The notes beneath the pieces are model-generated. The model was not told where the DNA came from. It saw nothing but the letters and a program-made list of their open reading frames with translations, and searched no databases. The translations under genes were made by a program, and so were the position numbers. From assembly GCA_042852035.1 (NCBI GenBank), contig BAAFHK010000002.1, positions 240,001-272,000 on the forward strand: 32,000 nucleotides of DNA, read 5' to 3'. Origin of the DNA: Candidatus Saccharimonadota bacterium. GTDB lineage: Bacteria; Patescibacteriota; Gracilibacteria; BD1-5; UBA2023. Position 1 is the first letter of the stretch; each line of letters begins with the position of its first letter. This document shows positions 1-32,000 of the stretch, piece by piece.

Positions 1-377
1 AAGCAAAGAAAGCTGAAGAGAAAGCAAAGAAAAAAGCACAAAAAGAAGCTGAAAAAATGGCAAAAAAAGCTGCTAAAAAAGCAAAGAAGGAAGAAAAAAA
101 AGCAAAGAAAGCTGTAAAAAAGAATCAAGTAAAGGCAGTAGTTCAAAAAAAGGCTCCTACTAAAAGAGCTTCTGTAAAAAAGGCTCCTGCAAAAAAAGCA
201 GCTCCAGTAAAAAATGTTGCTGTGAAGTCTGAAGTAAAAAAGCCTACTGTTGTAAAAGCTCCTGCTAAACCAACAACCCCTAAGAAAGCTCCAGTTAAGA
301 AACCAGTTGCAAAAGCTCTTCCAGCTAAGAAGCCTGTAGCAAAAAAAGCAGTAACTCAGACAGCATCAAAAAAATAA
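1..377 (+). CDS. Lys/Ala/Pro-rich histone H1-like (Hc1/AlgP-type) basic protein, C-terminal part; the 5' end lies outside the window
   Basis: The frame is open from base 3, and AKKAEEKAKKKAQKEAEK precedes the tracked Met at 57. Low-complexity KKAxAKKPV-type repeats run throughout. TAA at 375-377 is followed by a hairpin and T-tract. Confidence 0.6.
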   Translation, partial: AKKAEEKAKKKAQKEAEKMAKKAAKKAKKEEKKAKKAVKKNQVKAVVQKKAPTKRASVKKAPAKKAAPVKNVAVKSEVKKPTVVKAPAKPTTPKKAPVKKPVAKALPAKKPVAKKAVTQTASKK

Positions 378-378
378 T

Positions 379-402
379 CTAGGATTCTTCCTAGGTTTTT
401 TT
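379..402 (+). terminator. Rho-independent terminator-like hairpin
   Basis: CTAGGA (379-384) pairs with TCCTAG (389-394) around a 4-nt loop, followed by a T-run at 396-402. A second weaker hairpin, AATGAC...GTCATT, lies at about 421-447. Confidence 0.6.
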
Positions 403-559
403 ATGTGAATCATTTTTTCTAAATGACTCTCTAAAAGGGTCATTTTATTTTCTTCTCTATTTCAGGTGGGGATTATGAATAAATAATTTACTTCATTAAA
501 ATGCTTTGATATTCGGAAAAAATTACTAGAATCATCGTATATTCATTGTTGATTTTTGT

Positions 560-1936
560 ATGAAAAAAAATGTTCTCATTGGTATTAGTGTGCTTCTTTC
601 TATACTCATTTCTTTCCTCATTTTTCTGAAGAAAGATACTATGAAATCTCAAATTTGGGAAGACGAAAGTACTACAGGATCTCTTAATATAGAGAAGAAA
701 ATTGATCCTTCAATTCCAGCAGGATGAATCCCGAAGAAATCAACATCAATAGGAAATGTGGATACCAAAATAGATGTTATAAAGCAAGAGAAGATGGATA
801 AAAATCCACTTCTTATAAATGATATCATGTCCAATCGGCTCTATCTTATGGAAAAGTCTGGTCATGTTCTTTTTGAGTGGCCACTTGGAGATCAATACCT
901 CTGAAATGATGCATTTTTGCTTCCTGATGGAAAACTCCTTGCTTCAGTAAAATCAAAATCTCCGCATATAATTCTTGGAGGATATTGAGGTATTACTGAA
1001 TATATGGGAACAGGTGCACAGGCCCTTTGGAAGTATGAAATCTCCTCGACAGGCGTAATAGCTCATCATGATACTGAGCTTCTTCCAAACGGAAATATAC
1101 TGACCCTTGTGTGGCGTAAAATAGAGAAAAAGGATGCAAAAAAGATATGATATAAATCTGACATCGATATTTATCCTGAGAGAATAGTAGAAATAAATCC
1201 AACTACGAATTCTATAGTATGGAGGTGGGACTCAATGGATCATATTATCCAAGATGTGAATCCAAATCTTCCAAATTATGGTGTTATAGAGAAACATCCA
1301 GAAAAAATAAATCTCAACTACGCAAATTCAATGAGTGGTATGATAATGCATGGAAATGGACTTTTCTATGATTCCAAGAACGATCTTATCTACATGAGTG
1401 TTTATAATTTTAGTGAAGTATGGGTAATCGATCACAGTACGAGCTCATGAGAAGTTCATACTGGTAAGGGCTGAAATTACTGAAGATGAGGTGATCTTGT
1501 TTATCGATTCGGGAATCCAAGTGCTTACGGTGGAACCTGAACAAGAATCTTCTATAGCAATCACCATCCAAGCTTTACAAAACAATGAACATTTCTTATC
1601 TATTCAAATGGTATAAAGGCAAATCCTGAACAATCAACGGCTTATGAACTTAAGCTTCCAAGTGAGCTTGATGCAAAAAAAGCAACACTTATCTCACCTG
1701 AAATTGTTTGGTCCTATACTCATCCTGATTTGTTCTTCGATAAGGTAGGGGGTATAGTCGAAGCACCAAATGGAAATTTTATCCTTACAGAAGGGGATGG
1801 AAAAATTTGGGAAGTAACAAGAGAAAAAGAACTAGTTTGGACTTACACTGTTAAGCCATGAATGTTTTGGAGGACGTATGTCTATCCATACGGATCTCCA
1901 GAACTTAGTGCTCTAGGAATAGAAGAGAAAAAATAA
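560..1936 (+). CDS. Arylsulfotransferase (ASST)-family protein with an N-terminal membrane anchor or signal sequence (458 aa under code 25)
   Basis: The frame is continuous once about 12 in-frame TGA are read as Gly. The N-terminus MKKNVLIGISVLLSILISFLIFL is hydrophobic. ASST-like blocks include AHHDTELLPNGN and GKGGNYGRGGDLVYRFGNPSAYG. TAA at 1934-1936. Confidence 0.7.
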
Positions 1937-2103: not shown

Positions 2104-2139
2104 ATTGTTTCTATGTATTTTTTCTTCAAATCAAAACAT

Positions 2140-2272: not shown

Positions 2273-2974
2273 ATGAATACCCCTCCTAATGCATCAATGG
2301 GTTTGGATTTCCAAAAGTATCCGGAAAGTCTTATGCCAACAATAGCACAGGATCGAAATACATGAGAGATTCTTATGGTATGATTTGCTAATCCTCTTGC
2401 TCTCCAGAAAACTCGTGAAACATGAATGGCAACATTTTGGTCTCGCAGTCGTAATGAACTCTGGACTAAATGATTAAGTTCTTGAGATACGCTTATGGTC
2501 GAGAATATATTTACTGACTGTGATAGAGATACACTTATCTATCTTGTCACAATGAAAGGGAAGTGAGCCTGTCACATTGACTCTTGGCGGAGCTGTTTCC
2601 GTCGAAAAGTCGATATGCTGACATGAGAGATTAATCCAGAACCAGAAAACCTTCCACTTTGGTCACGAGTAAATACGGATGAACAATTGATTATTGAATC
2701 CCGCGCCTCGGCATCGAAAGAAGTTTCGTTTACTGCGAAACTTGCACAGTGAACCTGGTGAAAGCTCGTGGCTAAAGTGACAGAAGAAACATTCGAAGCT
2801 GTAACTGCCCTCACATGAAATGAAGGAAGGGGGCGAATCATCTCTGAGCTTGCAGATATAGACTACGTTACTCGAATTGTTCTCGCGAAGATAAATCAAA
2901 GCCTCAGAGATCAAAAAATTCCTCCTATTTCTGTCGAAGAAATCGAACAAGAAATCATGGCAAGACGAAAATAA
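2273..2974 (+). CDS. hisI: Bifunctional phosphoribosyl-AMP cyclohydrolase / phosphoribosyl-ATP pyrophosphatase HisIE (233 aa)
   Basis: HisI blocks: LMPTIAQDRNTGEILMVGFANPLALQKTRETGMATFWSRSRNELWTKGLSSGDTL and DCDRDTLIYLV..GACH..SCF. A HisE-like helical C-terminal half contains SFTAKL...KLVAKVTEE. TGA sits on the conserved glycines of TG-EVLM, TG and KGE-SG. TAA at 2972-2974. Confidence 0.85.
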
Positions 2975-2993
2975 TCCTTTAGCTTTTCCCTTT

Positions 2994-3746
2994 ATGAATA
3001 CTCTAAAATCATTTCTCGATTCTCTCAGATGAGGGCAGGTTTCTGATAGTGTACTTTTTGTGCAAAAATGAGTGGCTCAGTATGTTTTTGGACTCTTGTG
3101 ATATGGATCATTTGGTCGTCGATGAATGTGCGAGCTTAATAAGAATCTTCTTTTCCAATTCAAAACTCCTCAAGATATCAAAGTGGGAACAAAACTTTTT
3201 CAGTGAAAGAATCAATTCATTCTCACAGGGAGTGATGTTCTCCGCAAGGGTGAAGTAAGTGGTATCTTTGATGATTGTATTTTCGAAGAACTTCCATCAG
3301 AAAAAGTATGGTGAAGTCCGAGTACACTCTCAGTTTTTGGACCGATGGATTCCCTTGAGAGGATGGCCCGAGGAACCCCACCAGATATTATCTATACTCG
3401 ATGAGCACCAATCCTTACAAAAAAAGCTCTAGATAGAGCATATGCGGATGCTAGTATCGATATCCGAGAAGTCGATGGAAATACCGAGGCATTTGTTGCT
3501 ATTGAATCAAAAATCTCCAAAGATGCTACCGTCTGTGGTACAGAATTTGTCCAAACAGGAAGGTCACTCCAAGATACCGGATCATTTATCCTGAGAGAGG
3601 ATGGCATATATCTTCCACAACGAGGTGATGATGGATGATTTATCCTTTCTCGTCGTATTTCATCAACGTCATCACAAATTTTTTCGAATGCTCTTACCCT
3701 TGAGGTAAAAGTACTCTTTGCTCAAATCTTCCGAGAAAACGCATAA
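2994..3746 (+). CDS. hisG: Divergent ATP phosphoribosyltransferase (HisG)-like protein (250 aa)
   Basis: Begins 20 nt after hisIE. Matches by eye to HisG: QDIKVGTKLFQGKNQFILTGSDVLRKGE against DDIPxxVxxGxxDLGIxGxxxLxE, and REVDGNTEAFV...TEFVQTGRSLQDTG against GSVEVAP...CDLVSTGATLEANGL. The PROSITE-type ATP-PRT signature is only partly kept, and there is an insertion of about 6 aa. TAA at 3744-3746. Confidence 0.6.
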
Positions 3747-3890: not shown

Positions 3891-6110
3891 ATGAACCATC
3901 TTCCATCACAATCATACGAAACACCACAGGAACCGCCTTATGAATCAATTTCTCAAAGGAGTAAGACTATAGGATGAAAATGAGCAAATCTCGAATTTTT
4001 AAATTCCCTTTCTTCTCCAGGATTTATTGTCCCGAGATTTATGGTTCTCTCTGATTTTTCAGCAGAAAATCTCGCTCATATAGAAAGAGAGCTTTCAGAT
4101 TCGGTAGTTGCCGTACGCAGCTCATGAATCGAAGAAGATCATGATGGGTGAAGTATGGCGGGTGTTTTTCAAACACACTTAAACGTTCCATGAGCAAAAA
4201 TTTCTCAAACAATACAAGATATTCATGAGCACTCACTCCAAAAAACAGGCGAAAGAATCCCCATAGTTATTCAGGAAATGGTTGATGCTGAATATTCTTG
4301 AGTTGCATTCAGCTATGATACCGATGAGAATAAAGCATATTCCGTAATACAAATAGGAGAGGGAAATGGTGAATCTCTGGTTTCTTGAAAACAAACTGGA
4401 GAAACATATAAGATTCATCGAGATATCGATGAAAAGTATATTCCTGATGAGAGATTAAAGGCCCTCCATAAAGTTCTCCGTTTCTTATCCAAAAAATACT
4501 ATACTCCTCTCATTGATGTAGAATTTGCATTTATAAAATGATCAAATATCCCGTACATCCTGCAGGTTCGTCCTATCGTAAGAAGAAATCCTGATCCACA
4601 CCACGATAAGCCAATCCCTCGTGTCATGTACCGATATGCTCGAATGATAGCACATCGACTCTCAAACAGTGATGATATCTTCGGAAATATGATCGATATC
4701 AATCCTGAAGAGCTTGTCGGAAATCAGCCTCCACTCATCCAATCATTTTTTAGTACTATCTTCCCAGAATCATCTTTGAAAGAGGGGAGGGCATTCCTTG
4801 GATATGGTGAATCAGAGAGTATTTTGGGATATACTTTATGACATCCCTATATTTCTTTAAAAAATGATCTGAGAATGTTTTTACCAAAAGGACTTCCAGA
4901 AGATATCATTCGAGCATTCGAGAAATATTATCACTCTTTTATCGAAAGCAATCCAGGTGAGCAGTCTTCTCTGGATAGTAAACACTTCCCCAACACAAGT
5001 GAACAGCTTGAATACATACTGAATCGTTTGGAGATTTCCGAAGAACAAAAAGACGAGACGCGCCGAATTTTTGATCAATTTTTTCGAGGACTTCAGGAGA
5101 AATTGCTCGATTTCGATGATGAAATCGAAGGGATTCTCATGTGAATTTTTCAAAAGATTTCTCAACTTACAGGTACAACTATGAGATCATTTTGAGATCT
5201 TACCCAGCTGCAAGATACCAAAATTGATCCCGAGAAACTCAAAGAGCTTCTCGAGCTCATCAAAGAATGCACATACCTATTTGTTATTGCTGCTCGAGGG
5301 GCCTTTTATTTCAATACCCAAGATTCTTATATCGATGAAGCTTATTTTAAAACAAGAAAGTATGAAGCATCCATCTACCAGTATATGTGTGAAAGAGGGT
5401 ATGATAGAATAAGTTTTACTTCGGTAGAGGGCTTCAATTTTCTAAAGAAAATGACTTCAGAGTATACTATCGAAGGACTTCAGTCACTTGGTGCTGATGC
5501 ATCTTTTTCCGATGGTGATAGAGTCAATCCTACTTCTCGATTTATGGTTCACCGGGAAAATATCAAATACCTCTTTACGCGACTTTTTCTCATTTTACAC
5601 AATAGTATTTCTGACCCATCTCGTGCCCTAAATTATCGGGATTTTGCTTCCTTAATTGAGGATGAGATTTCTGGAGCTAAAGAGGAACCAAAAATAAAAC
5701 AAAGAGAATATAATCCTGAAGAACTTGGGAAGATGTTTTTATTTCCTGCGGTTATTCATCGAACGAATCATATGTTATTCCAGAAGCTCAGTATATCTGA
5801 GCCGCACTTTATTTGAGAGGGAATGAAGCGAGGAAGGATACTTTTTGTAAAACACGTTTCTGAGCTGAGCGGAAAGGATCTCACAGGAATGATTCTCTGT
5901 ATAGAAAATGCAACTCCAGAAATTGACATTTATCTCCCGAAGATAGAATGAGTACTTACAAAAAATGGATGACCACTGGCGCATATCACCATACGTGCTC
6001 GAGAATATGGAATTCCGGCAGTTGTCGGAATGGGGGAGAGATTTAATGCTCTCGAAAGAGCAGAAGCTGTAGAAATTGATTTTGCTCGCAAGAAATTAAC
6101 CATCCAATAA
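3891..6110 (+). CDS. PEP-utilising enzyme family protein with PpsA/rifampicin-phosphotransferase-like architecture: N-terminal ATP-grasp PPDK_N domain, an unassigned middle region, and a C-terminal phosphohistidine swivel domain (739 aa)
   Basis: I count 14 in-frame TGA. The N-terminus has IGGKGANLEFL (gga tga aaa tga gca aat ctc at 3972-3992), VAVRSSGIEEDHDGGSMAGVFQTHLNVPG, IVIQEMVDAEYSGVAFSYD and ILQVRPI. The C-terminus has NGGPLAHITIRAREYGIPAVVG, which includes the catalytic His context. TAA at 6108-6110. Confidence 0.8.
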
Positions 6111-6122: not shown

Positions 6123-6596
6123 ATGCAAATACAAGAAACTAAAGAAACATACATCCTCTTCATCTGTAAGGCAAATGTCTGACGTTCACAGATGGCTGAG
6201 TGAATCTATAATCATCTCTATAAGTCAAAGAGGGCAAAAAGTATCGCCGGATGTGAAGCGAGAAAAGATCTCTATGCATGAAAACCAGCAGAGTCTATAA
6301 AAGATTTTATGATCTCATATGCTGGGATCGATATATCATCTCAAAAGATCCAATACCTTTCTGATCTCTCTCTGGATGAAATCAATACAATTGAAGAGGT
6401 AATATTTCTCTATGATCCGACCCAAGAAACAATATGTGAAGGCGAATGCATGAGAGACGGACGGTCCCCTTATGAATATTTTAAGAATAGAGGAATTTCT
6501 CTTAGAATATTTCCGGTTGCTGATCCATTTTTAGAAGGAGAAAACACTTATGAATCAATATATGCTTCTATAGATTCACTTGTTCGTACTCTCTAG
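6123..6596 (+). CDS. Low-molecular-weight protein-tyrosine-phosphatase / ArsC-like phosphatase (157 aa)
   Basis: A CX5R(S) P-loop is present near the N-terminus in ILFICKANVGRSQMAEG. A late Asp-Pro (FPVADPF) sits at the expected general-acid position. The gene starts 13 nt after the preceding gene. TAG at 6594-6596. Confidence 0.7.
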
Positions 6597-6672: not shown

Positions 6673-7812
6673 ATGAAAAAAATTATCACTGGTATCAAAT
6701 CTACTGGCTCATCGCTCCATCTCGGGAATCTCATGGGTGCTGTTCTCCCGCTCCAAAATGTTTCAAGAGGGAATGATACTTCACTCTTCATCGCTGACCT
6801 CCATTCCCTCACTTCAGTAAAGGATGGAGATACTCTCCGTCATCAGACTTTCGAAATCGCGGTCGAGTATTTCGCTATCCTTGGTCTCGATACGGATATC
6901 CGCATCTTCCGTCAGTCAGATATCCGCGACATCACGAAGCTTATGTGGATCCTCACGAATGTGACACCGTATTCGCTCATGCTCAGGGCACATAGCTCAA
7001 AAGATAACATTAATAAATCTGTAGAGAATATTGGAAACAGAATACTTTGATTACGAAAGCAAATTGCACAGAATGAATACTTTGATGGCAATAATGATCT
7101 TTATGGTTTTATTGATAAATTAGTTGAAGAAATAAAATTAAATATTTTACCACAAGCATTTGATAATGCTATGACTCTTGAAAGTCTTAACATGTGAACT
7201 TTCAACTATCCTATCCTTATGGCAGCGGATATCCTCGGCTATGATATCGAGGCGGTGCCTGTCGGGAAGGATCAGGTACAGCACCTTGAGATGGCACGAG
7301 ATATCGCTCGCGCGTTCAATAAAACCTATGGAGTGGATATATTCCCAGAGCCAGTCGCGATAGTGACTGAGGAGCTCGCAACCCTCCCAGGTATCGATGG
7401 TCGCAAGATGAGCAAGAGCTATGATAATTTCATCGGAGTATTCGACGATGAGAAGCTTCTCAAGAAGCGTATCAACTCTATCGTCACTGGATCTGAGTGA
7501 GTCGACGATGTGAAGATGAATCCTGACGATTGTAATGTCTTCAATCTCTATAAGGTGTTTGCCTCAAAAGAACAAACAGCAGAGCTTCGAGTGAAGTATC
7601 AGTCGAAGGGAATTGGATTCGGATATGGCCATGCGAAAGCAGCATTATTCGAAGTACTCAATACATACCTCCGACCGTATCGAGAAGCTCGTGAGAAACT
7701 CTTACAAAATCCTGAAATCGTGGAAGCCAAACTCGCAGAGTGAGCGAAAGTGATGAATGCGAGACTTGATGCGAAGATGGAGGTGGTGAAGCGGGTGGTG
7801 GGGGTGAATTAA
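6673..7812 (+). CDS. trpS: Tryptophan--tRNA ligase carrying a lineage-specific AT-rich insertion (379 aa)
   Basis: Class I motifs are present: [11 protein letters not shown] (HIGH-type), [16 protein letters not shown] (TGA at 7195-7197 on the conserved Gly), [18 protein letters not shown] and KMSKS. Four in-frame TGA. TAA at 7810-7812. Confidence 0.9.
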
Positions 7813-7851: not shown

Positions 7852-7956
7852 ATGGAAAAAAATAAGAAAAAGGACATAGCTGATACAAAAAATATCCAGG
7901 ACCTTATAAAGAATCCTGTAGTTTATTCAGTACTCGAACGACTTAAAGATAAATAA
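7852..7956 (+). CDS. Very small putative antitoxin (34 aa) preceding doc
   Basis: Sequence is MEKNKKKDIADTKNIQDLIKNPVVYSVLERLKDK. Its TAA (7954-7956) overlaps the doc ATG (7956-7958) by 1 nt, the classic translationally coupled toxin-antitoxin layout. I recognise no family. Confidence 0.4.
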   Translation: MEKNKKKDIADTKNIQDLIKNPVVYSVLERLKDK

Positions 7957-8342
7957 TGTTCTATCTCACAAAAGAGAACGTGCTTCTCATTCATAAAAAT
8001 GTTTGTGAAATCTTTAAAAATAGAGAGGGTATTTTACATGAATGACAACTTGAATCGCTTTGTGCACATATCCAGAATGATGAGTATTATCCAACTATCT
8101 ATGATAAGCTTGCTCATTTTTTCTTCGGTCTTGTACAGTTTCATATTTTTGTTGATGCAAATAAACGAACAGCACTTCTTTGTTGACTCCTACTTGTAGC
8201 CTGAAATTCAAATCAGTTTTGAGACTATAATGTTGAGAAATCTTCACTTTTCCTTGAGCAACTAGCATTATCTGTAGCAACAGGGAAGACGAAAGAAGAT
8301 GAGCTTCCAGAAATTCTTAAGCAGTATTTTTGAGGTGTTTAA
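7956..8342 (+). CDS. doc: Fic/Doc family death-on-curing toxin (128 aa)
   Basis: The Fic/Doc motif HxFx(D/E)(A/G)N(K/G)R is present as FHIFVDANKRTA. The N-terminus LTKENVLLIHK...EGQLESL is typical of Doc. Five in-frame TGA. TAA at 8340-8342. Confidence 0.8.
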
Positions 8343-8850
8343 ACTTGAGTTTCCCACCATCTTCCACAAATCCCTCTATCTCGATATGATAGAGGAGTGG
8401 AGAAATTTCGAATCTATTCCGACGAGTCCGAGAGCTTTGTTTCGAGGGGAGACTTATGAGGAATTTCTCGAAATCATAGAGAATAATCGTACCTCGAATC
8501 AACTCGGAGTACCTGCTACACTTTTCTTTTTTATGGAGGATGATATGCTCCTCGGAGCACTCCAACTTCGTCATCATATCGAACATCCCAATCTGTCTCT
8601 CGATGGAGGTTGTGGATGACATATTGGCTATGGACTTAGGCCAAATGCGAGAGGGAAGTGACTTGCGAAAGTGATGTTAGGGCTATGACTGTGAGAAGCA
8701 AAGAAGCTGTGACTCACGAAAGTTCTTATCTCCGCTCATAGTGAAAATATTGCTTCTTGGAAGACGATTGAGTGACTTGAGGGAGAATTTATTCAAGAAA
8801 TTGATGATGAAGGTAAGGGGCTCAGAGTATACTGGATAAAAATTCCTTAG
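8299..8850 (+). CDS. GNAT-family N-acetyltransferase (183 aa from ATG 8299; an alternative GTG start lies at 8335)
   Basis: GNAT blocks: SLYLDMIEEW, GGHIGYGLRPNARGKGLAKVML, LGLTKVLISAHSENIASWKTIEGLEG and RVYWIKI. Overlaps the doc 3' end by 44 nt (ATG start) or 8 nt (GTG start). TAG at 8848-8850. Confidence 0.75.
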
Positions 8851-8903: not shown

Positions 8904-10547
8904 ATGCCACGCCTTATCCTCGCTTCGATTTGGTCGCTCTGACTACTTTCCGGATTTGTGCTTATTCTCGTGCTTATCGTGATGGGTTTTGCAGGAGTGG
9001 ATATAAACCTCCCATTTGCTATAGGGATTACTATTGTTTGGAATTTTATTGTTTGGCTTGCTGGACCACTTGTTTCAGATTTTCTCTATCAGTGGCTCTA
9101 TCGTGTCCAGTGGATAACTATCGAGTGACTCGAAAGTAAATCTCCAGAATCAGCTAAAGTTATACGTTCTGTCTGCCAAGAATATCATATCACTCTCCCA
9201 GAACTTGGAATAATTCCTGATAATAATCCCAATGCTTTCACCTATGGTTCAGGGAAGTGGAATAGTCGTATAATCGTGACTGAGGGGATATTTACCTTTC
9301 TTGATGAGAACGAGCGAGCTTCGGTATATGGACATGAGCTGGGTCATATCAAGAATAACGATTTTATCGTTATGACCATTGCTTCAACACTCGTCCAAAT
9401 TATTTATGAGATCTATTATTTTAGTAAGGAGGCGAGTAAGCGAAAGACATGAGGGAAAAAATGAAATCCATTTCCTCTTATTGCACTGGTGGCGTATGTA
9501 TTTTATGTGGTAGGGAACTATATACTTCTTTACCTTAGTCGTATAAGAGAGTACTATGCTGATGAATTTAGTGCCAAATATACCGATCCAAATGCTCTTG
9601 CTCAAGCCCTTATGAAAATCGCGCTTGGAATACTTGCTACCCCTGAGAACAATCGTCTAGTAGAATCAACCAAGCATATAGGGATAGCAAGTGTCGCTGT
9701 CTCTGAGGGTATTGGTCTCGTATATGCGAACTGTCAGAAAGTGAATAATTTTGAACCTCTTGCTCGAGCACTACTTTTTGATATCAAAAGTCCATGGGCA
9801 TGGGTCGCAGAACTTTCTTCAACTCATCCACTTACGGGAAAGCGCATTAAAGCTCTCATGAAGCTTACCACGAGTCCTTACTATGATCTCGAAAGAATCG
9901 AACAAAAATATCCCATCGATCAGTCTCGACTCTATGGTTGATTTTGGAAGGATGTATCACTTCTTATTCTTATAAAATTCCTTCCATGGATTGGGCTTGT
10001 TGGTTGATTCATGATTTCGCTTTGACGCCTCACTTCAGATAATTCCTGGATAGGAATTGTTGCAGGAGGGATATTTGGATTTGGACTGAGCCTCCTACTT
10101 TCTACCTATATGAGATATAATGATCTCAGTGAAAATCGAACTACCGTTCTCGAAGTAATGTCAGATGTGTATGCATCACCCGTTCGTGGAAAAAGAGTAG
10201 CTCTTTCTGGGACAATTATATGAAAGGGGATACCAGGGTATGTCTTCTCAGAAGATATGATGCTTCAGGATTCGAGCGGGCTTATGTATCTTGATTTTCA
10301 GAGCAAGGTTCCGGTGATTGGAAACCTCATTTTTAGCCTTACAAAAGTCCAAACACTCATAGATAAACCAGTAGAAACGACGGGTTGGTTCTTCCGAAGT
10401 ATTTGATCGAATGTAGTGGTAGATACAGTATCTCAAGGAACAAATGAGATTCATGGATGAGCAAAATTTTGGTGAAATATATCAGGTTTAGTGCTGTCGA
10501 TTATAGGATTTGCGTGAATTGCACTCGTTATGAGTTGAAGCATATAA
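8904..10547 (+). CDS. M48-family (HtpX-like) zinc metalloprotease with an extra C-terminal transmembrane and soluble extension (547 aa)
   Basis: N-terminal transmembrane helices are followed by HELGHIKNND (HExxH), a downstream EYYADEFSA and SSTHPLTGKRIKAL. Two more hydrophobic segments and a domain of about 130 aa follow. TAA at 10545-10547. Confidence 0.75.
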
Positions 10548-10619: not shown

Positions 10620-11177
10620 ATGTCTCTCTTCTCGATTCTCCTGATTTCATTTTCGCTTGCTATGGATGCCTTCGCAGTCTCAGTTTCTGCAGGGATTTCT
10701 CTGCGTAAGGCCATTTTTTGGAAATCATTTTTTCTAGCAGGAGTTTTTGCTATATTCCAAGCAATCATGCCTCTTATAGGATGGGCTGGTGGATATAGCA
10801 TCAGGAATATTCTTGAGCCGATTGATCATTGGGTTGCATTTCTTCTTCTTGGCTTTATCGGGGTAAATATGATTCGTGAAGCATTGGCAGGCGATGATGA
10901 AGATAAAAAAGACTATTTTTCCCTTCGATCACTTATGACACTTGGTATAGCTACAAGTATTGATGCTCTTGCGGTAGGTATATCGTTCGCACTTCTTCCG
11001 ATAGATATACTTACCACAGTATGTATAATATGATCCGTTACTTTTATTCTTTGCTTTCTCTGAGTATATGTTGGGGTAAAATTTGGTCACATGTTCGAGA
11101 AAAAGGCAGAGATACTTGGAGGTATCATTCTTATTCTTATAGGGAGCAAAATTCTCGGAGAACATCTATTTTTTTAA
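10620..11177 (+). CDS. mntP: Manganese efflux pump MntP (185 aa)
   Basis: Two MntP half-repeats are present: [14 protein letters not shown] and [16 protein letters not shown]. The protein is a multi-pass hydrophobic protein. TAA at 11175-11177. Confidence 0.85.
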
Positions 11178-11260: not shown

Positions 11261-11977
11261 ATGAAGTATTTTTATTGAGTATTTATCCCATTTCTTCTAT
11301 TACTTGCTTCGTGTAGCTGAGGATATCCAATTGAAGATAAGGAAGATTTCCTTACTTTTGAAGCAAAAAATGGTTTTGAGATGCTTTTTGATTCAGGAGC
11401 AAAAAAAGCACTTCATGAGTATTACGAGTCAGGAACAGTTGTAATCAATGGATCATACTTTGGACAGACAACTTCCTCTGGATATTATCCAGCTTGAGTC
11501 TGGAGTATTCTTTGAGATGACTTTCATGATGATGATATTGATCTTTTAGACCCGAACCTGAGTCATATTGTTCTCTATGACCATGAGGGGTGATGGGTCC
11601 TTTTTCTTGATAGAGAGACTCCTCTTCCAGAGTGTGCAAAGCGTTCATCATGAGCAACGATTCTGTGTTCTATTTTTCAAGCCTGACCACTGGTTCTCAG
11701 TTGAGGAATACTTGAGAGTTTTGGTGATTCATGGCATGCAAATGGACCACATGAAAGAACCCTTATAGGAATAACGGAAGAAGGGAAGATATACTTTTTT
11801 CTTTTTACGGAGAAAGTAACTCTTACCGAAGCATGAGAAAAAATAAGGGAGAAATTCCCAAATGAGAATATGACTCTCTTGAATCTTGATGGTGGACCAT
11901 CAACAGCATATTTTGATGGAAGAGAATGATTTGGACAAAATAAAAAACTTCCTATAGTCTTTCGAATTCACATGTAA
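11261..11977 (+). CDS. Phosphodiester glycosidase (NAGPA/DUF2233) family lipoprotein (238 aa)
   Basis: A lipobox-like LLLASCSGG is present. Family blocks include VINGSYFG, GPHERTLIGITEEGKIYFFLF and LLNLDGGPSTAYF. TAA at 11975-11977. Confidence 0.65.
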
Positions 11978-20972: not shown

Positions 20973-21467
20973 CTATTTCACAATCTCCACTCCTCCCACC
21001 ACCTTATCTGTAAATAACACCCCATCGAGGTGATCAATTTCGTGTTGCACGATTCGTGCCGCAAGATCTTCGAGTTTAAGGGAATATTTTTTTCCTTCTA
21101 TATCAAGGAAATTAACTCGTACCCAGGTCCATCTCTCAACAGAACCTGTCTCTCATGGTACAGAAAGACAGCCTTCTTTATCGCTACATTTTTTTCCACT
21201 ATTTTCGATAATTTCTGGATTTATCATCGGGATAGTTCGATAGTTTTCATCATCGTAGTCTTTCATAAGAGAAACGACTATAAGGCGTTTATTATATCAA
21301 ACTTGAGGAGCGGCGAGTCAAACCCCTCAATTCTCCGGATCTTTAATATGTTTTACCATCTCAAGGGCAAGACTTTTATACTTTCTTATTTCTTGAGATT
21401 TTATAGGTTCAGATAGAGTTCTTAGAATACTATTTGATTGCCCAGTTTGGATTTTTAATTTTTGCAT
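20973..21467 (-). CDS. def: Peptide deformylase (164 aa)
   Basis: All three Def motifs are present: ENGGVGLAAPQVGY (TGA at 21327-21329, 21318-21320 and 21297-21299 on glycines), EGCLSVPG and QHEIDHLDG. Confidence 0.9.
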
Positions 21468-21557
21468 ATATTCTAATGTTTGTACAGGAAAGTCTATTTT
21501 TCCGATTGAATAATAGGGACTTTCTCATAAAATTCAAGACAAATAAATGAAGTTGAT

Positions 21558-22874
21558 ATGCTTGAAAAATTTAAAAAACTCATTCCTCTTGATTCCCCAA
21601 TCCGACTCACTTGGCATTATCTTATGGGATGGCTTGCTTATCTTTCCTCTGGAAATCCAGCAAAGGATATGATAGTAATAGGAGTAACTGGTACAAAAGG
21701 GAAGACTACAACCTGTAATCTTATTGCAAAAGGATTGAGTGCGAATGGAAAAAAAATCGCCATGTTTACTACGGTAAATATGATTATTGGCGATATTGAA
21801 GAGGAAAATACTCTCAAAATGACCACTCCATCACCCTGGCAAGTTTGGGAATTTATACGACGAGCAAAATTAGCTGGTTGTGAATTCCTTATTATGGAAA
21901 CATCTTCACATGCGCTTTTTTATCACAGAGTCCATGGGCTTAGATATGATGTAGCAGTCATGACGAATATATCTCAGGATCACCTTGATCTTCATCGAAC
22001 AATGGAGAATTATGTTAATACAAAACTTCTTCTCTTTAAGAATCTCTACAAATATTGAATCCGCAGAGATGTAAGAAAGGTTTGAGTCGTAAATATCGAT
22101 ACTGAATATAGCGAAAAGTTCCTTTCGAAAGATATCGTTGTTGATGCGATGCATACTTATGGTATATGACCAAGAGCAAGCATTCGTGCAGAAAATATTG
22201 AGGCAAAAGAAATGGGTATCTCTTTCGATGTGCGTATGGCTTCAAGTAAGTTTCATATAGATTCCAAGCTTCAAGGGGAGTTTAATGTTATGAATATTCT
22301 TGCTGCCACAGCTGTGCTTATTTCTCAAAAAGTACCCCTAGAAATTATAACCAAAACAATATCACTTGTTGGATGAGTGCCAGGAAGACTTGAGGAGATT
22401 CCTAATTTAAGATGATGAAAAATATTTGTTGATTATGCTCATACCGAAGAATCCCTCAGGAGTGTTCTTGATACTATAAAAAAGATTGAATGAACAAAGC
22501 GTACTATTCTTCTTTTTTGAGCCACAGGTGATAGAGATAAAACAAAACGCCCGAAAATGGGGCGAGTTGCTGACACTATGGCTGATGTAATTATACTCAC
22601 GGACGATGATACATATACTGAGGATTCACTTGCAATTATTAGGCAAGTAACCGAAGGGATTTCGAGAAGAGAAGGTGAGAATTTCTGGATTGTTCCAGAT
22701 CGTGAAGATGCTATCCGTACAGCGCTTCTTATGCTTCACCCTTGAGATGTTCTCCTTGCCGCAGGGAAGGGCGCAGAAACTGTTCTTGTGACTCAAGCTG
22801 GCCCGATACCCTGGAATGATAGGAAGGTTATTGAGCGAATCCTTATGGAGATCGAGAGTCAGGTGATAGCTTAA
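21558..22874 (+). CDS. murE: Mur ligase, MurE-like, with a shortened N-terminus (438 aa)
   Basis: The P-loop VIGVTGTKGKTTT appears already at about residue 43. Other blocks: ETSSHAL, VMTNISQDHLDLH, GEFNVMNILAA, VPGRLEEI, VDYAHTEESL, FGATGDRDKTKRPKMG and AGKGAE. TAA at 22872-22874. Confidence 0.7.
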
Positions 22875-23260: not shown

Positions 23261-23761
23261 CTAGAGTAAGAATCAGAGAATATCGCTTGCGATTTCTTGA
23301 GGGGTTCTTCCTTCTATAGGAAATCTGGGATTAAAACTTTGGTAGTGCATTCCTCGAGTGTGCATAAGGTTTCTGAAATCATTGGCATTTTGTGCAAGGG
23401 GTCGAACATTTATTGTATCTGCCATTATTCTCTCAAGGAGGAGTCAAATCGGTCATGAAAGAGAAATAATACGACCTTTTGATCTATAAATTCTCCTTAC
23501 ATTTTCTTCGTCGAGTAATGAGCCGCCTCAAAGAGAGATGACCCGGCTCCTAGAGTTTTGAATGACGGATAATAGGGTTTGTGATTCTAATACACGAAAT
23601 ACAGAGATTCAATAATGCTTTATAAAGTCTGGTATGCGTACTTCGTAGAGTCGTTCAAACTCGGTATCGAGGTCGACGTGATGTGTCGAAAGTTTTCGAG
23701 CGAGTTCTTTTCCGACAGTACTTTTTCCAGATCAAGGAGGTCAATAGAGAAAGAGGTTCAT
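23261..23761 (-). CDS. aroK: Shikimate kinase (166 aa)
   Basis: MNLFLYGPPGSGKSTVGKELA has TGA at 23741-23743 and 23732-23734 on the two Walker-A glycines. DLD and ISLGGGSLL are also present. TAG at 23261-23263. Confidence 0.8.
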
Positions 23762-23765: not shown

Positions 23766-24869
23766 TTACATCTTAGTTCTTCTTTTTTCAACAGATTTAC
23801 TTAAAGTCTTAAGCATTTTCAAGGTTTCTTCCCATCAAACACATGCATCCGTGATGCTTTGACCATAAATCAATCACTGTGGATCATCTTTACCTGGGGT
23901 AAATTTTTGAGCTCATGCTTCGAGATTACTCTCAATCATTACTCATCAGATATGTCTCGATCATGATCAAATCTGTTCGCTAATATTATCAACAACTTTT
24001 AACTGATTTTCATGATTTTTCTGACTGTTTCAGTGACTTGCATCAATCATTATTCTACTTCAATATAATCAAGCTGCCATTAGTTGTTCAGCGGCAGAAA
24101 GAACATGTTGAGCTGAGTAGTTTGGATTTTTTCATCCCCTAAGAATAAGGTGGCAGTCTAGATTTCACGTTGTTTGCACCATGGCAACTTTTCCACTTTT
24201 ATGAACAGAGAGAAAATGATGTCATTTTGATGCAGCCAAGATGGCATCAAGTGCAATCTTTATATTGCCATCTGTTCAATTTTTGAAGCCAACAGGTGAG
24301 GAAAGTCATGAAGTTAATTCTCGATGGACTTGACTTTCCGTTGTTCTTGCTCATATGGCTCACCAGGCGATAAGGTCAGCTATATATTGAGGACTAATTA
24401 CATCAAGATACTCTGAACCTGCAGGAACTCATAGTCTGTTAATTTCTAGAAGAAGCTGTCGTGCAATCCTTAATCATTCATCAATTTTATATGTTTCATC
24501 TAGGTATGGGTCATTAATAAGTCATTTCCATCCAACAGTAGTTCGTGGTTTTTCAAAGTATACACGCATTATTATTTCAAGAGTATCTTTATATCTTTTT
24601 CTTTCTTCAGCAAGATTTCGAGCATATTCGATTGCTCATGCAGGGTCATGTACTGAACATGGTCAAACTACAACTATAAGTCTATCGTCTTTTCCATGAA
24701 TAATTCTTGATGCTGCAGATCTTGTATCGGAAACTTGGGTTTCAATAGAAGTGCCTGCTATAGGGAAAAACCGAATTAAGTCTTCTGGCGGGGGAAGTGG
24801 TTCAATATTTTGAATTCTTTTATCATCAACAGTTGATGTGATATCAGAGGGGGTAGTATTCAATGCCAT
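23766..24869 (-). CDS. aroG: Class I 3-deoxy-7-phosphoheptulonate (DAHP) synthase (367 aa)
   Basis: Blocks present: [76 protein letters not shown] and IMIDASHGNS. Ends 4 nt before the aroK start. Confidence 0.9.
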
Positions 24870-26223: not shown

Positions 26224-26258
26224 TATAAAAAATTCTCTCGTATTGCAACTAGAGAATT
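26224..26258 (-). terminator. Rho-independent terminator of the upstream - strand gene
   Basis: AATTCTCT (26231-26238) pairs with AGAGAATT (26251-26258). On the - strand this is followed by UUUUUAU (26224-26230). Confidence 0.6.
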
Positions 26259-26811
26259 ATTTTTCGATTTCATCGATTTTCTTATCGAGTAAATATATAA
26301 GGTGACGTAGGAATTCTTGAAGAATCTCTTTTTTCGATGAACTTCACTCAGTTTCTTCAGTTTTTTCAAGTCGAATCTTGAGAGATTCTTGTATTTTTTG
26401 ATAGGCAACCTTTCTTTCGTTTAAGTCAGGTATGGTTTTTGTAAGCTTTATACTGAGATCTTTGATAATTTTATTTCATTGAGCCTTGTAAGATTCGATT
26501 ATGTAGGCATTGATATCACGTTTGAGTTTAATTTCAGTTTTTTTCTTTTCAATCTCATTGTATTCTTGGGAGCTTGATCAAGTTAAGGTTTCCTCATCAA
26601 GACTATTCTGAGATTCTAAATCTTGATTGCTATTCTCATTTTTCTGATTTTTTATCTTTTCCTTTAAGTCCTTTTTTTCATTCGTGAGTTTTGTTCCTGT
26701 TGATGAAGTCTGCACTGTTTTGGTGCCATCTTCATTTTTAGCAAAAACACTTCACCAAGAAGCCGTGAAGAAGATTAGGGCACAGAAGAGGTATCAGATA
26801 TACTGTTTCAT
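26257..26811 (-). CDS. Secreted K/E-rich, probably helical hypothetical protein (184 aa)
   Basis: A signal-like N-terminus MKQYIGYLFCALIFFTASWGSVFA is followed by charged low-complexity sequence. I recognise no family. TAA at 26257-26259. Confidence 0.5.
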
Positions 26812-26879: not shown

Positions 26880-27740
26880 TTAGTTAATGTCATTTTTCAA
26901 AATTTGAATTTCTCAATCTATCTTTTTGCAGAGTGAAAAATAGGGAATTGACATATTCCTTATGAAAAATATTTCATCTTCTTTTATGGAAGAGGGTAAA
27001 AGTTCTTTGGTTATTTTCTTTCAATGAATGATTTCATTCATTGTGGCAATAGATCATTCATAAGTATGAATAGTATGAAAAATACTATTTAATGAAATTG
27101 GAGATGGATTTTCAATATTTGAGCACTCAGATATTTGACAATGAAAGTTTTCGCCATCAATCGAGATTCGTCTGAGTTGAGTAAGGTATCATCACTCAAC
27201 CCCAAAGAATTCTCAGAGAAGAGGTCAGAATGATCGTATATAACAACCAGATGAGACCTTCAATCGTATCTTTATTTCAAGATTTCACTTTTCTATAATA
27301 TCAGCTTCAAATACTTTAATTGGCCTTTTTTCAATATGAAAATCCTTTCACTTTCGAGCTATTTCATAGGAACGTTTCCCATTTATGTGAATTGCACTAT
27401 ATTTTGGTGGAGTCTGATCTTTTTGTCACAAGAGAAAGTCAATAATTTCGGATTCAGATTTCCACTTAAAGCCGGTTACATCAATAGGTGTTATAGGCAT
27501 CTCAGTATCATAAGATTCTGATGTTCCATCAAAACGTATGGTCGTAATATATTCTTTCTTTGATGATTCAAGAAGAGGAATGAGTTTTGTACTTTTCTCT
27601 GTAGCAATGAGCAAACATCATGTAGCAAGAGGATCAAGAGTTCCTGTGTGTCACATTTTTTTTACATTGAGTTTTTTTCTTAGCTGTCGAATCACTCAGA
27701 AACTTGAAACACCGCTTGGTTTATCGATGAGGTAAAACAT
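26880..27740 (-). CDS. truB: tRNA pseudouridine(55) synthase (286 aa)
   Basis: Blocks present: IDKPSGVSSFGVIRQLRK, GHTGTLDPLATGCLLIA (catalytic Asp context) and QTPPKYSAIHINGKRSYEIARKG. TAA at 26880-26882. Confidence 0.85.
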
Positions 27741-27748
27741 AGAAAAAG

Positions 27749-28567
27749 TTACTCAGAAAGCTCAGGATAGCTTGCATTTCTTGGATGACTGAGAAACCGA
27801 GGAGGGTAAGTCCAACGCCATTTCTTGCTATCAATAAGTCCGTCAACACCAAAAATATTGTAGTATCATAAATTAAGTAGTACTTTTCATACTATATCTT
27901 TTCTTTTTATGAAGTGACTTTTTGAATCATCATTGAGGCAAATTTTAAAACACGATCGAGAATCAGCAGAATTATTTCTGTTATCACCCATAACCCAATA
28001 ATATCATTCTGGAATAGTAAATTCATTTGTTTTTACGTTTTCAGGGAGCCGAGTCTGTCAAGCGTTTGCACTTGAGAGATATTTTTCAGAAATTTTAATA
28101 AACTTTTCACTGTTTGGAGTCTTAATAAGTACTTCACCATCCTCAAATCGAATAGTATCACCAGGCGCTGCAATAACACGTTTAATGTAATATTCTTTCT
28201 TTCTATCGACATGAGGAGTAATGACGACTACATCACCACGCACAGGATCTCCAACATGTATCGGGAGAATTGATAAAAAGTTATATAGTAATTTCTCGAC
28301 AGTTCCTGCGCTCGTTGATGGCTCTTTATAGACAACAGGGGTATTAAGATATGAGAATTTATCAACTATGATATATTCTTTATCATGATAACTTGTTTCC
28401 ATCGAGCTTCCATTAATTCTGAAAGGCGTTACGACAAATACGCGAATAGTAATTACGATAAGAAATATAATGACTAGATCACGCAAAAATGCTATAAATT
28501 CTTGGAGCGTCTTATTTGAATCTTCTAAGCTTTCGGTCTCAAAGTGAGATTCTTGTTTATCTCTCAT
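27749..28567 (-). CDS. lepB: Signal peptidase I (272 aa)
   Basis: A transmembrane helix is followed by INGSSMETS (catalytic Ser), YIKRVIAAPGDTI (catalytic Lys) and YWVMGDNRNNSADSR. TAA at 27749-27751. Confidence 0.85.
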
Positions 28568-28599: not shown

Positions 28600-31359
28600 T
28601 TATTTACCGTGACACTGTTTAAACTTTTTTCAACTTCAACAAGGGCAGGGATCGTTTCTTCAAACTCAAGCGTATTTTGCTTTTTCAGAATCATTTTCTC
28701 ATGTAACTTTCATTATACGTATATCAGGATCTGCTTCAGTGAGCGGTTCTGGCGTATACTCTGAATGTCACATGTGTCCGGCTCTTGCTGTCATTGATTG
28801 ATCAAATCCCTCTTGAGCACTGTCAGTATATTTCTCGAGAAGTGATGCCTCAAGGTTTACTTCATCGATTGATTCACGAGGCCTTGCTGTGAGAAGTCAT
28901 TTTATGACACGAACTCCAATTGTATCAATAAGAATTACAAATTTTTCATAGGCCTTTTCTTTATATATAATGAGAGGATTTTTCTGTGCATATCACTCAA
29001 AGGCAACTTCTTCCCTGAGGTGGGCCATACTGTCGATATGATTCATCCAGAGCTCATCGATAGAGGCAAGCGTAAGTCTTCTTTCAAATTCTGCAAATTC
29101 TTCTTCTGTTCCAGTGTTTCGAAGTGATTCAATTTTTCCAGAGAGAAGAGAAAATACTCGACTCTTCGCTTCATCGAAGCTTCAAGCCTGAGCAAGATCG
29201 TCAGCATGAATTACTTCAGCTTCAGCAAATTCATTCACAAACTCCATAATTTGGACTCAGATTTCAGAAGAGTATTCCTTTTCTTCTCCTTGAGCCATAT
29301 CTATAATTCTAGAAATTTCCCTTTGAAGCATCTCAAGAATTTCACTGTGAATGTCGTTTCATGCAAGAATTCTTCCTCTTCGTGAGTAGATGGCAAGTCG
29401 ATGATGATTGAGTACATCATCGTACTCAAGAATATGTTTTCTTATATCAAAATTTCTTCATTCAACTTGTTTTTGAATCGTGGTAATATTCCTCATGAGC
29501 TGCTTACTCTCAATAAGTGGATCACTCTCAGGATGGGATTCAAGATTCGCTAGGATAGCAAAAAGTCGATTTCATCCAAATATTCGCATGATATCATCTT
29601 GAGGAGATAGCATGAATTGGGAGAGTCCTGGATCGCCCTGTCGTCATGATCGCCCTCTGAGCTGGTTATCGATACGTCGTGTTTCGTGTTTTTCTGTTCC
29701 AATGACATAAAGTCAACCAAGTGGGTACTCTTGCATTCCTGCAGCTCATTCGAGCTTAACTGATCCTGTAAGGGTACGGACACGTTCATCGATTTTGATA
29801 TCTGTACCTCGTCATGCCATATTAGTTGCTATAGTCACTGCTCAATATTGACCAGCAGAAGCTATTATATCAGCTTCACGTGCATCTTGTTTTGCATTGA
29901 GTACTTGATGTGGAACTCATTCTTTCTCAAGAAGGTTAGAGAGATACTCACTTTTTGCTACCGAAACTGTTCCTACAAGTATAGGCTGACCTTTTTCGTG
30001 AAGGGCTTTAATTACTCGTACAAGATAGGCATACTTTCCTTTCTCTGTTCGAAAGAGGAGATCTCAACGATCGCTTCGTTTAATCGGTTTATTGGTTGGA
30101 ATTTGTATCACCTCAAGATGATATATCTTGTAAAACTCTTCTTCTTCAGTTTTTGCAGTACCAGTCATACCTGCAAGTTTTGGATACAGTCTGAAATAAT
30201 TCTGAAATGTTACGGAAGCAAGTGTGCGAGACTCTTGTTGTATGGTCACCGATTCTTTTGCTTCAATTGCTTGATGAAGTCCATCAGAGTATCGTCTTCC
30301 TGGAAGGACTCGACCTGTATGCTCGTCAATAATAAGAATCTCATCATTTCGAACGAGATAATCGATATCCTTTTTATAGACACTAGCTGCCTTCAGAGCA
30401 TTCTCTACATGATGAAGATCATTATAATGTTGGCTTACGTAGATATTATCAACTCACAGAAACTCCTCAATCTTTCGTATGCCTTCTTCGGTAAGTGTTG
30501 CAGTTTTTTGTTTCTCATCAATTTTATAGTGAATTCCCTCATCGAGTGAGCGTGCAAGAGCTGCAAATCGTGGATACTTACTCGTAGGTTCAGCATCAGG
30601 AGCGGAGATAATGAGCGGAGTTCTTGCTTCATCAATGAGTATGGAGTCAACTTCATCAACGATTGCAAACCAACGCTTTCTCATAACCTGCCTATCATCT
30701 CGAACAGCCATATTGTCACGAAGGTAGTCGAATCAAAGCTCATTATTGGTTGCATATACTATATCTGCACTATATGCAGCTTTTTTTTGCTCAAATGATT
30801 GTCAATGGGTGATGACATCAACCTTGAGACCAAGAGTATTGTAAATTATTCACATCTCAAGAGCATCACGTCGAGCAAGGTAGTCATTAACCGTAACAAT
30901 GTGTACTCAATATCCAGTAAGAGCATTTAGGTATGCAGGGAGGGTAGCAACAAGCGTCTTTCCTTCTCATGTTCGCATTTCGGCAATATTACCATCATGA
31001 AGCGTTAAGGCTCAGATAATCTGAACATCATAAGGTATCATATTCCATGTTATGGATTTTTCTCATCAGATACTGAATTCTTGTCCATAAATCAATTCAC
31101 AAGCTCTTCTATGGAGAGCAAATGCTTCATGCTTTATTGATTCGAGTATTTCACGGATTTTAATTTTATCCTCATCTTTTTCTATATCGAGTCATTGAAA
31201 TCGAGATTGAAATTCATGAGTTTTTGCCTGAACTTGATCTATAGAGCTGATTTCTTCACGAAACTTTGTTTCAATAGATTTAATAATTTCAAGTTCTTTC
31301 TGATATTGTTTGAGTTTTTTTGTACTTGGGTCACCAAAGAGGAGAGATAAAAGCCACAT
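28600..31359 (-). CDS. secA: Preprotein translocase ATPase SecA (919 aa)
   Basis: Blocks present: [44 protein letters not shown] and [15 protein letters not shown]. The C-terminal zinc finger is [17 protein letters not shown], with TGA at 28636-28638 and 28630-28632 on its two glycines. TAA at 28600-28602. Confidence 0.95.
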
Positions 31360-31472
31360 GTTCTAGAAGGAGTAAATAAAAAATCCCGCAAATTATACGA
31401 AAAAAGTCTCTCTTATCAAATCTCGTGTGGTGAAATGAAAGTGAAGGAGTTGACTATTTTTATATTAATTCA

Positions 31473-31497
31473 TTAAAAATCCCCTTTCGGGGGGATT
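31473..31497 (-). terminator. Rho-independent terminator after tig
   Basis: On the - strand, AAUCCCC and GGGGAUU form a hairpin followed by UUUUUAAUG. Confidence 0.65.
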
Positions 31498-31499
31498 AA

Positions 31500-32000
31500 T
31501 TATTCAAAGAATGAATCAACTACTTTTCTGTAGGCAAGACGATTTTTTATATCTTCGTAGTAAGTGTCACCTGGAACAAGTTTTGCACGAAGTCTATCAA
31601 TAACTTCATTTGATCCGTATTGAGAAATAACCTTTTCAACTTCTTCTTTGATTTCATTTTCTGATGGCTCGATCGCTTTAAGTTCACGAATTTTTCTAAG
31701 AAGAAGTTCTGCCTTTACTCTTCGGAGAGCTTCAGGTTTTACTACCTCATCCTTGTACATTTCTGCTGACTTCTTGAGGTGATCAAGGTATTGCTTCATC
31801 TCATACCCTTGCTGCATGAGGTTTTCAGATTGTTCTCGATATACTTGTTCAATTTCAGCAGAAAGAAGAGAAGGTCCTACTTCAAACTCTGAAGCTTCAA
31901 GAATCTCCTTCATAAGAAGATCTTCATCCTTTGCTCGTGCATCGTATTCATGTTTAGCTCGAATCTCTTTTGAAAGGATTTCACGAAAGCCAGTAAGATC
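31500..32000 (-). CDS. tig: Trigger factor, C-terminal domain; the 5' end lies outside the window
   Basis: A trigger-factor C-domain-like sequence is present: EVGPSLLSAEIEQVYREQ...KAELLLRKI. The frame stays open to the window edge. TAA at 31500-31502. Confidence 0.75.
   Translation of the reverse strand, partial: DLTGFREILSKEIRAKHEYDARAKDEDLLMKEILEASEFEVGPSLLSAEIEQVYREQSENLMQQGYEMKQYLDHLKKSAEMYKDEVVKPEALRRVKAELLLRKIRELKAIEPSENEIKEEVEKVISQYGSNEVIDRLRAKLVPGDTYYEDIKNRLAYRKVVDSFFE

Follow-up and report, generated by a model that had tools for sequence, protein, structure and literature searches.

Reading frames in the window

The stretch of DNA analysed here, called the window throughout, is the 32,000-nt segment at positions 240,001 to 272,000 of contig BAAFHK010000002.1, and the element under study is the codon UGA (TGA in the DNA), which the original prediction held to be a glycine codon in every gene. 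The G+C content of the window is 36.6%. When TGA is taken as a stop (table 11), the longest stop-to-stop open reading frame (ORF) is 261 aa and the ORFs of at least 100 aa sum to 5,119 aa, while with TAA and TAG as the sole stops the longest ORF is 920 aa and the sum over the same length class is 23,849 aa. Greedy non-overlapping ORFs were observed to cover 91% of the window with TAA/TAG-only stops and 22% under table 11, and the view that the meaning of UGA decides every gene call in this segment is borne out by the latter value. A map of 30 ORFs built with TAA and TAG as the sole stops tiles about 90% of the window and is given below, with the strand and the number of in-frame TGA codons for each ORF.

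57..377, + strand, Lys/Ala/Pro-rich histone-H1-like ORF, open at the left window edge, 0 TGA
560..1936, + strand, arylsulfotransferase-like protein, 11 TGA
2273..2974, + strand, HisIE (PRA-CH and PRA-PH), 10 TGA; the tryptophans of FWSRSR and LW are TGG
2994..3746, + strand, protein of unknown family, 8 TGA
3891..6110, + strand, PEP-synthase/PPDK-family protein, 14 TGA, with 3975 and 3981 within TIG-X-K-X-ANL
6123..6596, + strand, low-molecular-weight phosphatase-like protein, 3 TGA
6673..7812, + strand, TrpRS, 4 TGA, with 7195 opposite a glycine of Escherichia coli TrpS
7956..8342, + strand, Fic/Doc family protein, 5 TGA
8299..8850, + strand, GNAT acetyltransferase, 6 TGA
8904..10547, + strand, M48 (HtpX-like) peptidase, 13 TGA
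10620..11177, + strand, MntP, 2 TGA, both opposite glycines of E. coli MntP
11261..11977, + strand, phosphodiester glycosidase (NAGPA) family protein, 10 TGA
11980..12810, + strand, GpsA, 8 TGA
12815..13918, + strand, HflX, 8 TGA, with 13430 the first glycine of the G1 motif GYTNAGKS
13919..14473, - strand, pilin-like protein of unknown family, 5 TGA
14532..15182, + strand, Big_5 surface protein with a C-terminal LPLTG signal, 1 TGA
15222..16451, + strand, FtsW/RodA, 17 TGA
16828..18111, + strand, Wzy_C O-antigen-ligase-like protein, 20 TGA
18092..19237, + strand, GT4 glycosyltransferase, 12 TGA
19238..20308, - strand, tRNA dihydrouridine synthase (Dus), 11 TGA
20973..21617, - strand, peptide deformylase (Def), 6 TGA, with 21327, 21318 and 21297 in NxGVxLAAPQVx
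21558..22874, + strand, MurE-like Mur ligase, 9 TGA
23261..23761, - strand, shikimate kinase AroK, 7 TGA, with 23741 and 23732 the two Walker-A glycines
23766..24869, - strand, DAHP synthase AroG, 22 TGA, the same as deposited protein GAB0175067.1
25020..26198, - strand, AI-2E family transporter, 8 TGA
26257..26811, - strand, protein of unknown family, 5 TGA
26880..27821, - strand, TruB, 15 TGA
27749..28567, - strand, signal peptidase I (LepB), 4 TGA
28600..31359, - strand, SecA, 30 TGA, with 28636 and 28630 in the zinc motif CPC-G-S-G-KK
31500..32000, - strand, C-terminal part of trigger factor, running off the window, 0 TGA in 137 codons (31500-31913)

Among the 9,621 codons of this map, TGA occurs in frame 274 times and TAA and TAG not at all, which gives a density of 28.5 TGA per 1,000 codons; TGA accounts for 37% of the codons read as glycine and is the commonest single glycine codon in the window. 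TGA was found in 28 of the 30 ORFs, on both strands and in every functional class. The claim that every conserved gene is interrupted by TGA holds for these 28 ORFs and fails for the other two, namely the trigger-factor fragment, in which all 4 glycine codons are GGN, and the ORF at 57-377. The latter has no Pfam match and lacks TGA because it lacks a glycine codon of any kind. The count of 274 may be about 4 too high, since the longest Def and TruB ORFs begin about 50 and 27 codons before their Pfam domains, overlapping adjacent genes. Translation probably begins at Met51 (21467) in Def and at Met28 (27740) in TruB, which would leave two TGAs of each ORF, at codons 28 and 31 of Def and at codons 20 and 23 of TruB, upstream of the start.

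The 30 ORFs end in TAA (23) or TAG (7), in line with the prediction that only these two codons act as stops. This agreement is partly by construction, as the ORFs were defined in such a way that neither in-frame TAA/TAG nor TGA stops could occur. Support for read-through that is independent of the definition comes from Pfam matches which run end to end over the TGAs and from genes which abut tightly. Twenty-six of the 30 ORFs match Pfam families once TGA is translated as glycine, and up to 30 TGAs are spanned by full-length matches in a single gene. For example, positions 3-354 of the 356-position FtsW profile are matched across 17 TGAs. The SEC-C motif of SecA is matched over positions 1-19 of 19, past the TGAs at codons 908 and 910, and finishes on the final residue of the protein. 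The TGAs of this zinc motif sit 10-12 codons before the end of the gene and the conserved C-terminus can only be made by passing through them.

These frames bear directly on the default reading, in which UGA has kept its role as a stop and the TGAs are lesions of pseudogenes, errors of sequencing or assembly, rare selenocysteine sites or points of leaky read-through. Apart from being the table 11 default, nothing specific was found in its favour. It would have to account for 274 TGAs against no TAA or TAG in the same frames and would break the essential genes for SecA, FtsW, TrpRS, Def, LepB and MurE. Sequencing errors and decaying genes are also at odds with the occurrence of TGA or GGN at the same SecA sites in 78 other assemblies of relatives (see below), and leaky read-through would be expected to give no product from genes with up to 30 TGAs. 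As for selenocysteine, cysteine lies opposite just one of 136 TGAs aligned with E. coli proteins, the density of 28.5 UGA per 1,000 codons extends to every gene class, and no Rfam family was matched in a scan of the 32-kb window. We regard pseudogenes, artefacts, selenocysteine and leaky read-through as refuted by the counts, the density, the conservation of sites and the lack of cysteine partners, and the probability left to this explanation is vanishingly small.

Residue encoded by UGA

Ten conserved genes were scored against Pfam with TGA translated as glycine, as the neutral residue X or as tryptophan, and the bit scores rank in the order Gly > X > Trp across these genes. The scores, in this order, are 293.1, 268.1 and 253.1 for FtsW; 302.5, 263.9 and 243.7 for DAHP synthase; 365.8, 349.3 and 345.4 for SecA_DEAD; 235.8, 221.5 and 215.7 for P-loop_SecA; 247.2, 228.0 and 219.7 for Dus; 149.0, 140.7 and 135.5 for Def; 143.0, 124.6 and 118.1 for TruB_N; 99.7, 89.2 and 83.0 for Mur_ligase_C; 106.6, 97.1 and 90.5 for SKI (AroK); 65.2, 56.8 and 53.0 for MMR_HSR1; and 89.3, 76.6 and 71.1 for PRA-CH. 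For SEC-C the glycine version scores 40.4 and the X version 29.2, and a tryptophan version is not listed.

All 20 residues were also compared, using hidden Markov models (HMMs) made from distant homologs alone and placing each amino acid in turn at every TGA site. Glycine was observed to be the top residue in both proteins scanned. In DAHP synthase it scores 658.5, followed by alanine at 627.9, with tryptophan at 597.2, and in SecA it scores 1156.0, followed by serine at 1118.1. The margin of glycine over the runner-up is thus 31 bits in DAHP synthase and 38 bits in SecA, and tryptophan lies 61 bits under glycine in the former.

In distant homologs which use the standard code, the columns that hold TGA in the window are 61-64% glycine and less than 1% tryptophan. 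The DAHP synthase alignment comprises 118 homologs of about 65% identity, those with names being mostly from Burkholderiales. Here, at least 90% of the residues are glycine in 14 of the 22 TGA columns and tryptophan is found in none, while all three TGG codons of the gene fall on invariant tryptophans. The SecA alignment comprises 146 diverse representatives of 43-56% identity, and its 30 TGA columns are 61% glycine, against a background of 6.8% and a value of 74% for the window's own GGN columns; tryptophan is again below 1%. The one conserved tryptophan column of SecA (771) is encoded by TGG. Together with FWSRSR and LW of HisIE, these sites sustain the point, made before the analysis, that conserved tryptophans are still TGG.

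Sixteen window proteins with TGA masked as X were aligned to their orthologs in E. coli K-12. The partners most often found opposite the 136 aligned TGAs are glycine (63), alanine (12), glutamate (9), serine (8) and threonine (7), with tryptophan and cysteine at one site each. In a well-aligned context TGA is opposite glycine at 50 of 84 sites, which is comparable to GGA (31 of 43). Tryptophan is the commonest partner of TGG, at 13 of 37 sites and at 8 of 16 in the strict context. TGA is the only codon whose commonest partner differs from the standard table, if a trivial Ile/Leu swap at ATC is set aside.

The original prediction named 11 TGA positions and described them as falling on invariant glycines. 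Each of the 11 is a TGA in the reading frame (seen as TCA on the + strand where the gene is on the - strand) and lies in the motif quoted for it. Eight of these are opposite glycine in E. coli, including 21318 of Def, which is the conserved glycine of G-I-G-LAA. The position at 21297 is opposite aspartate, and 21327, 3975 and 3981 are unaligned. The two sites at 3975 and 3981 presumably correspond to the glycines of the GGKGANL motif of the PEP-synthase/PPDK family, a motif of this family which lies in an N-terminal stretch outside the alignment to known structures; further along this protein, TGA codons 137 and 166 are opposite glycine in PDB entries 5hv6 and 9goj. The description therefore fits most of the sites, as it does most of the DAHP synthase columns, and it does not extend to all of them.

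A second way of taking UGA out of the stop set is genetic code 4, in which it encodes tryptophan, as in Mycoplasmatales and some insect endosymbionts. The hosts of this code are Mycoplasmatales, Hodgkinia, Nasuia, Zinderia and some Eggerthellaceae, and the likeness to the present case lies in the codon that ceased to be a stop, in genomes that are AT-rich and reduced, and in a reported loss of release factor 2 (RF2); the difference is that the amino acid here is glycine. Code 4 would restore the long ORFs equally well, and a public SecA entry with tryptophan at such columns (P0274, described below) indicates that some pipelines do translate such genomes in this way. However, tryptophan scores below the neutral X for nearly every family, DAHP synthase (243.7 against 263.9) being an example, and a residue that scores worse than an unknown one leads us to reject the code. 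Tryptophan is opposite TGA at just 1 of 136 E. coli sites, TGG is used by relatives at the window's SecA TGA sites in only 1 of 2,203 codons, and the conserved tryptophan columns are served by TGG. Code 4 is effectively refuted by the Pfam scores, the residue scans, the E. coli partners and the codons of relatives, and we consider it extremely improbable. On each of these measures glycine was favoured over tryptophan or a stop, which upholds the prediction of UGA as a glycine codon throughout the window.

A further change of code has been described in the neighbourhood of this lineage, with CGA and CGG encoding tryptophan in Absconditabacteria and CGG predicted to do so in some Gracilibacteria (Shulgina & Eddy 2021, PMC8629427). 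Absconditabacteria are a sister lineage within the code-25 class, and their change was not seen in the window, where CGA is frequent (123 codons) and falls on arginine, which makes up 97% of the residues in its DAHP synthase columns, 54% in those of SecA and 35 of its 74 partners in E. coli. CGG is rare, with 14 codons (for example DAHP synthase codon 33, HisIE 106, Dus 128 and AroK 73). Its one informative column, DAHP synthase 33, is 95% arginine, and none of the seven CGG sites aligned with E. coli orthologs is opposite tryptophan. Both codons thus appear to remain arginine codons, thinly for CGG, where the assignment depends on one column and seven pairwise sites.

Besides the deposited copy, the nearest homologs of DAHP synthase (23766-24869) are 64-67% identical and, where named, mostly belong to Burkholderiales, including Aquabacterium, Ideonella and Tepidimonas; one Gracilibacteria protein is also found at 67%. 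This resembles the picture of a gene which was taken up long ago from Betaproteobacteria by horizontal transfer and has since gained its 22 TGA glycine codons. Shikimate-pathway genes, here AroK (23261-23761) and DAHP synthase, are unusual in a genome of the Candidate Phyla Radiation.

SecA genes of relatives

A SecA scan of GTDB species representatives gave 80 loci of 55-79% identity, mostly labelled Candidatus Gracilibacteria and in some cases Peribacteria or Patescibacteria group. At the 30 sites where the window's SecA has TGA, a codon alignment of 78 relatives contains GGN 1,142 times, TGA 359 times and TGG once among 2,203 codons. In the opposite direction, the window mostly has TGA or GGN where relatives have TGA. 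The SecA genes of the 78 relatives end in TAA (57) or TAG (21) and none ends in TGA, which extends the prediction about stop codons beyond the window. In the relatives whose C-terminal residues were inspected, the stop directly follows the conserved CHGK/R.

The share of TGA among SecA glycine codons in relatives ranges from 0 to 0.87 and drops with rising G+C of the locus (Spearman -0.71, p = 5e-13). With 37% of its glycine codons being TGA, the window as a whole sits at about the middle of this range.

We noticed nine loci of about 60% SecA identity (L046, L052, L044, L047, L053, L035, L038, L040 and L068) in which table 11 gives an ORF cover of 74-87% and reading through TGA yields only 3-10 such codons per 1,000. 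They are mostly labelled Gracilibacteria or Peribacteria, and their SecA never ends in TGA. These loci may use the standard code, or may use TGA sparingly. According to the gTranslate preprint, some of the genomes named 'Gracilibacteria' at NCBI are in fact table-11 taxa.

The public entry P0274, a SecA representative of 908 aa from a library clustered at 50% identity, has tryptophan at 20 of 23 near-invariant glycine columns, and in total 69 tryptophans against only 5 glycines. Judging from this composition, it is evidently a code-25 gene which was translated with code 4 and which comes from a lineage where GGN has been almost fully replaced by TGA.

Identity of the genome and decoding of UGA

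The DAHP synthase and SecA ORFs correspond to the deposited proteins GAB0175067.1 (P0001) and P0121, which have glycine at all 22 and all 30 TGAs and show no other difference. Both are placed on one 289,822-bp contig described as 'MAG: Candidatus Altimarinota bacterium', where MAG stands for metagenome-assembled genome. Since the deposited proteins have glycine at every TGA, it follows that table 25 was used in translating the public record. Code 25 in this genome is already known, and the two deposited proteins that were checked already carry glycine at each TGA.

Essentially all of the genes are translated through UGA, the amino acid that suits these positions is glycine, and relatives exchange UGA with GGN at matching sites. 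As for placement, the source of the deposited proteins is Candidatus Altimarinota (taxid 363464), and the nearest SecA loci, at no more than 79% identity, are from MAGs labelled Gracilibacteria. In the NCBI taxonomy Candidatus Altimarinota is a phylum of the Patescibacteria group, and the same taxid is given as Gracilibacteria in PMC8629427. On these sequence comparisons, the window is almost certainly chromosomal DNA of a Gracilibacteria/BD1-5-type bacterium which uses genetic code 25, with UGA encoding glycine, UGG as the sole tryptophan codon and termination at UAA or UAG only.

The reassignment was stated in the original prediction to be known for this clade, and this is correct, as it has been described since 2013. 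According to the summary in PMC8629427, it was reported for Absconditabacteria (SR1) and Gracilibacteria by Campbell et al. and Rinke et al., and the recoding of UGA to glycine in a BD1-5 bacterium is the subject named in the title of a 2014 paper, which is associated with its proteomic confirmation (PMC4032931). The GTDB class JAEDAM01, which counts hundreds of genomes, is now routinely given code 25 (gTranslate preprint; PMC13092985); it is made up of the orders BD1-5 and Absconditabacterales. The hallmarks of the code are a tRNA-Gly with anticodon UCA, which carries the glycine identity elements G1:C72, C2:G71, G3:C70 and U73, and the loss of RF2 (PMC8629427; gTranslate preprint). The window resembles the known code-25 systems in having in-frame UGA on glycine columns, UGG as the tryptophan codon, UAA and UAG as the only stops, a low G+C content and an affiliation with Patescibacteria/Gracilibacteria. 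Nothing qualitative separates it from them; UGA forms 37% of the glycine codons here and 0-87% in the SecA genes of relatives.

By analogy with the clade literature, UGA would be decoded in this bacterium by a dedicated tRNA-Gly(UCA) which bears the identity elements for glycine, and RF2 would have been lost, hence nothing would terminate at UGA. After the reassignment, AT-biased mutation of GGA to UGA probably spread the codon, as the share of UGA among glycine codons falls with rising G+C in relatives.

Several results weigh against the code-25 interpretation. No tRNA gene was found in the 32-kb window, and no tRNA with anticodon UCA in the SecA neighbourhoods of the 80 relatives (about 1.4 Mb), where only Thr(GGU), Phe, Arg(CCU), Glu and Leu tRNAs occur. 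Neither release factor 1 (RF1) nor RF2 was matched in 1.45 Mb of Gracilibacteria DNA when E. coli queries were compared with a code-25 six-frame translation, and this search, being equally silent on both factors, says nothing either way on the loss of RF2. About one third of the TGA columns are not glycine in homologs, and the window's GGN columns are similar in this respect. Glycine scores marginally below X in two domains, GTP-bdg_N (66.6 against 67.7) and PRA-PH (28.1 against 29.1). Furthermore, occasional termination at UGA is possible in unconserved C-terminal tails, for example in Dus after codon 318, where TGAs follow at codons 340 and 352.

Tails of this kind, which are also found in AroK (codon 163) and the M48 peptidase (codon 545), would be the places for a dual meaning, with UGA encoding glycine within genes and still acting as a terminator at some gene ends. 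This seems highly improbable, as the conserved zinc-motif C-terminus of SecA requires the two TGAs close to its end to be passed, SecA ends at TGA in 0 of 78 relatives, and the clade is reported to lack RF2 (PMC8629427; gTranslate preprint). It is also very unlikely that UGA is read as glycine here by some other implementation, either without a dedicated tRNA-Gly(UCA) or with residual release activity at UGA in some contexts. No observation in this analysis points to such an atypical arrangement.

Phages with recoded stop codons are known, as are phages of Gracilibacteria, so that the segment could be thought to belong to a recoded phage or mobile element and not to a cellular genome with a genome-wide change of code. 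The gene content is that of a cell, however, with the housekeeping genes for SecA, trigger factor, TrpRS, HflX, FtsW, MurE, Def, TruB, LepB and Dus. The recoding applies evenly to genes of either strand and of every functional class. The contig has a length of 290 kb, and the MAGs that contain the 80 nearest SecA loci bear for the most part the label Gracilibacteria, Peribacteria or Patescibacteria group. A phage origin is rejected on the housekeeping content and the 290-kb contig, and there is practically no chance that it applies.

With cellular DNA using code 25 as the preferred interpretation, every gene call in the window depends on table 25. All the essential genes look broken under table 11, and table 4 would place tryptophan at catalytic glycines, an error of which P0274 is an existing public example. 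Scientifically, the window brings nothing new to a code described since 2013 and represents one more code-25 genome of JAEDAM01, for which hundreds are known.

Other features of the window

The bifunctional HisIE gene is isolated, as the other his genes are absent from the 32-kb window. The N-terminus of the pilin-like protein at 13919-14473, KSGFTIFEMMVTITIL, resembles a prepilin-type cleavage/methylation signal of the type IV pilin kind, and this protein gave no Pfam match at the default threshold. The neighbouring secreted Big_5 (bacterial Ig-like) protein at 14532-15182 ends in LPLTG, a hydrophobic stretch and RRR, in this order, which we take to be a classic sortase cell-wall sorting signal.

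The GT4 glycosyltransferase gene (18092-19237) shares 20 nt with the Wzy-like gene upstream of it. The two halves of the glycosyltransferase were observed in reversed order, with Glycos_transf_1 at residues 6-128 and Glyco_transf_4 at residues 191-373. This order could be due to a permuted protein, a fusion or a mis-assembly.

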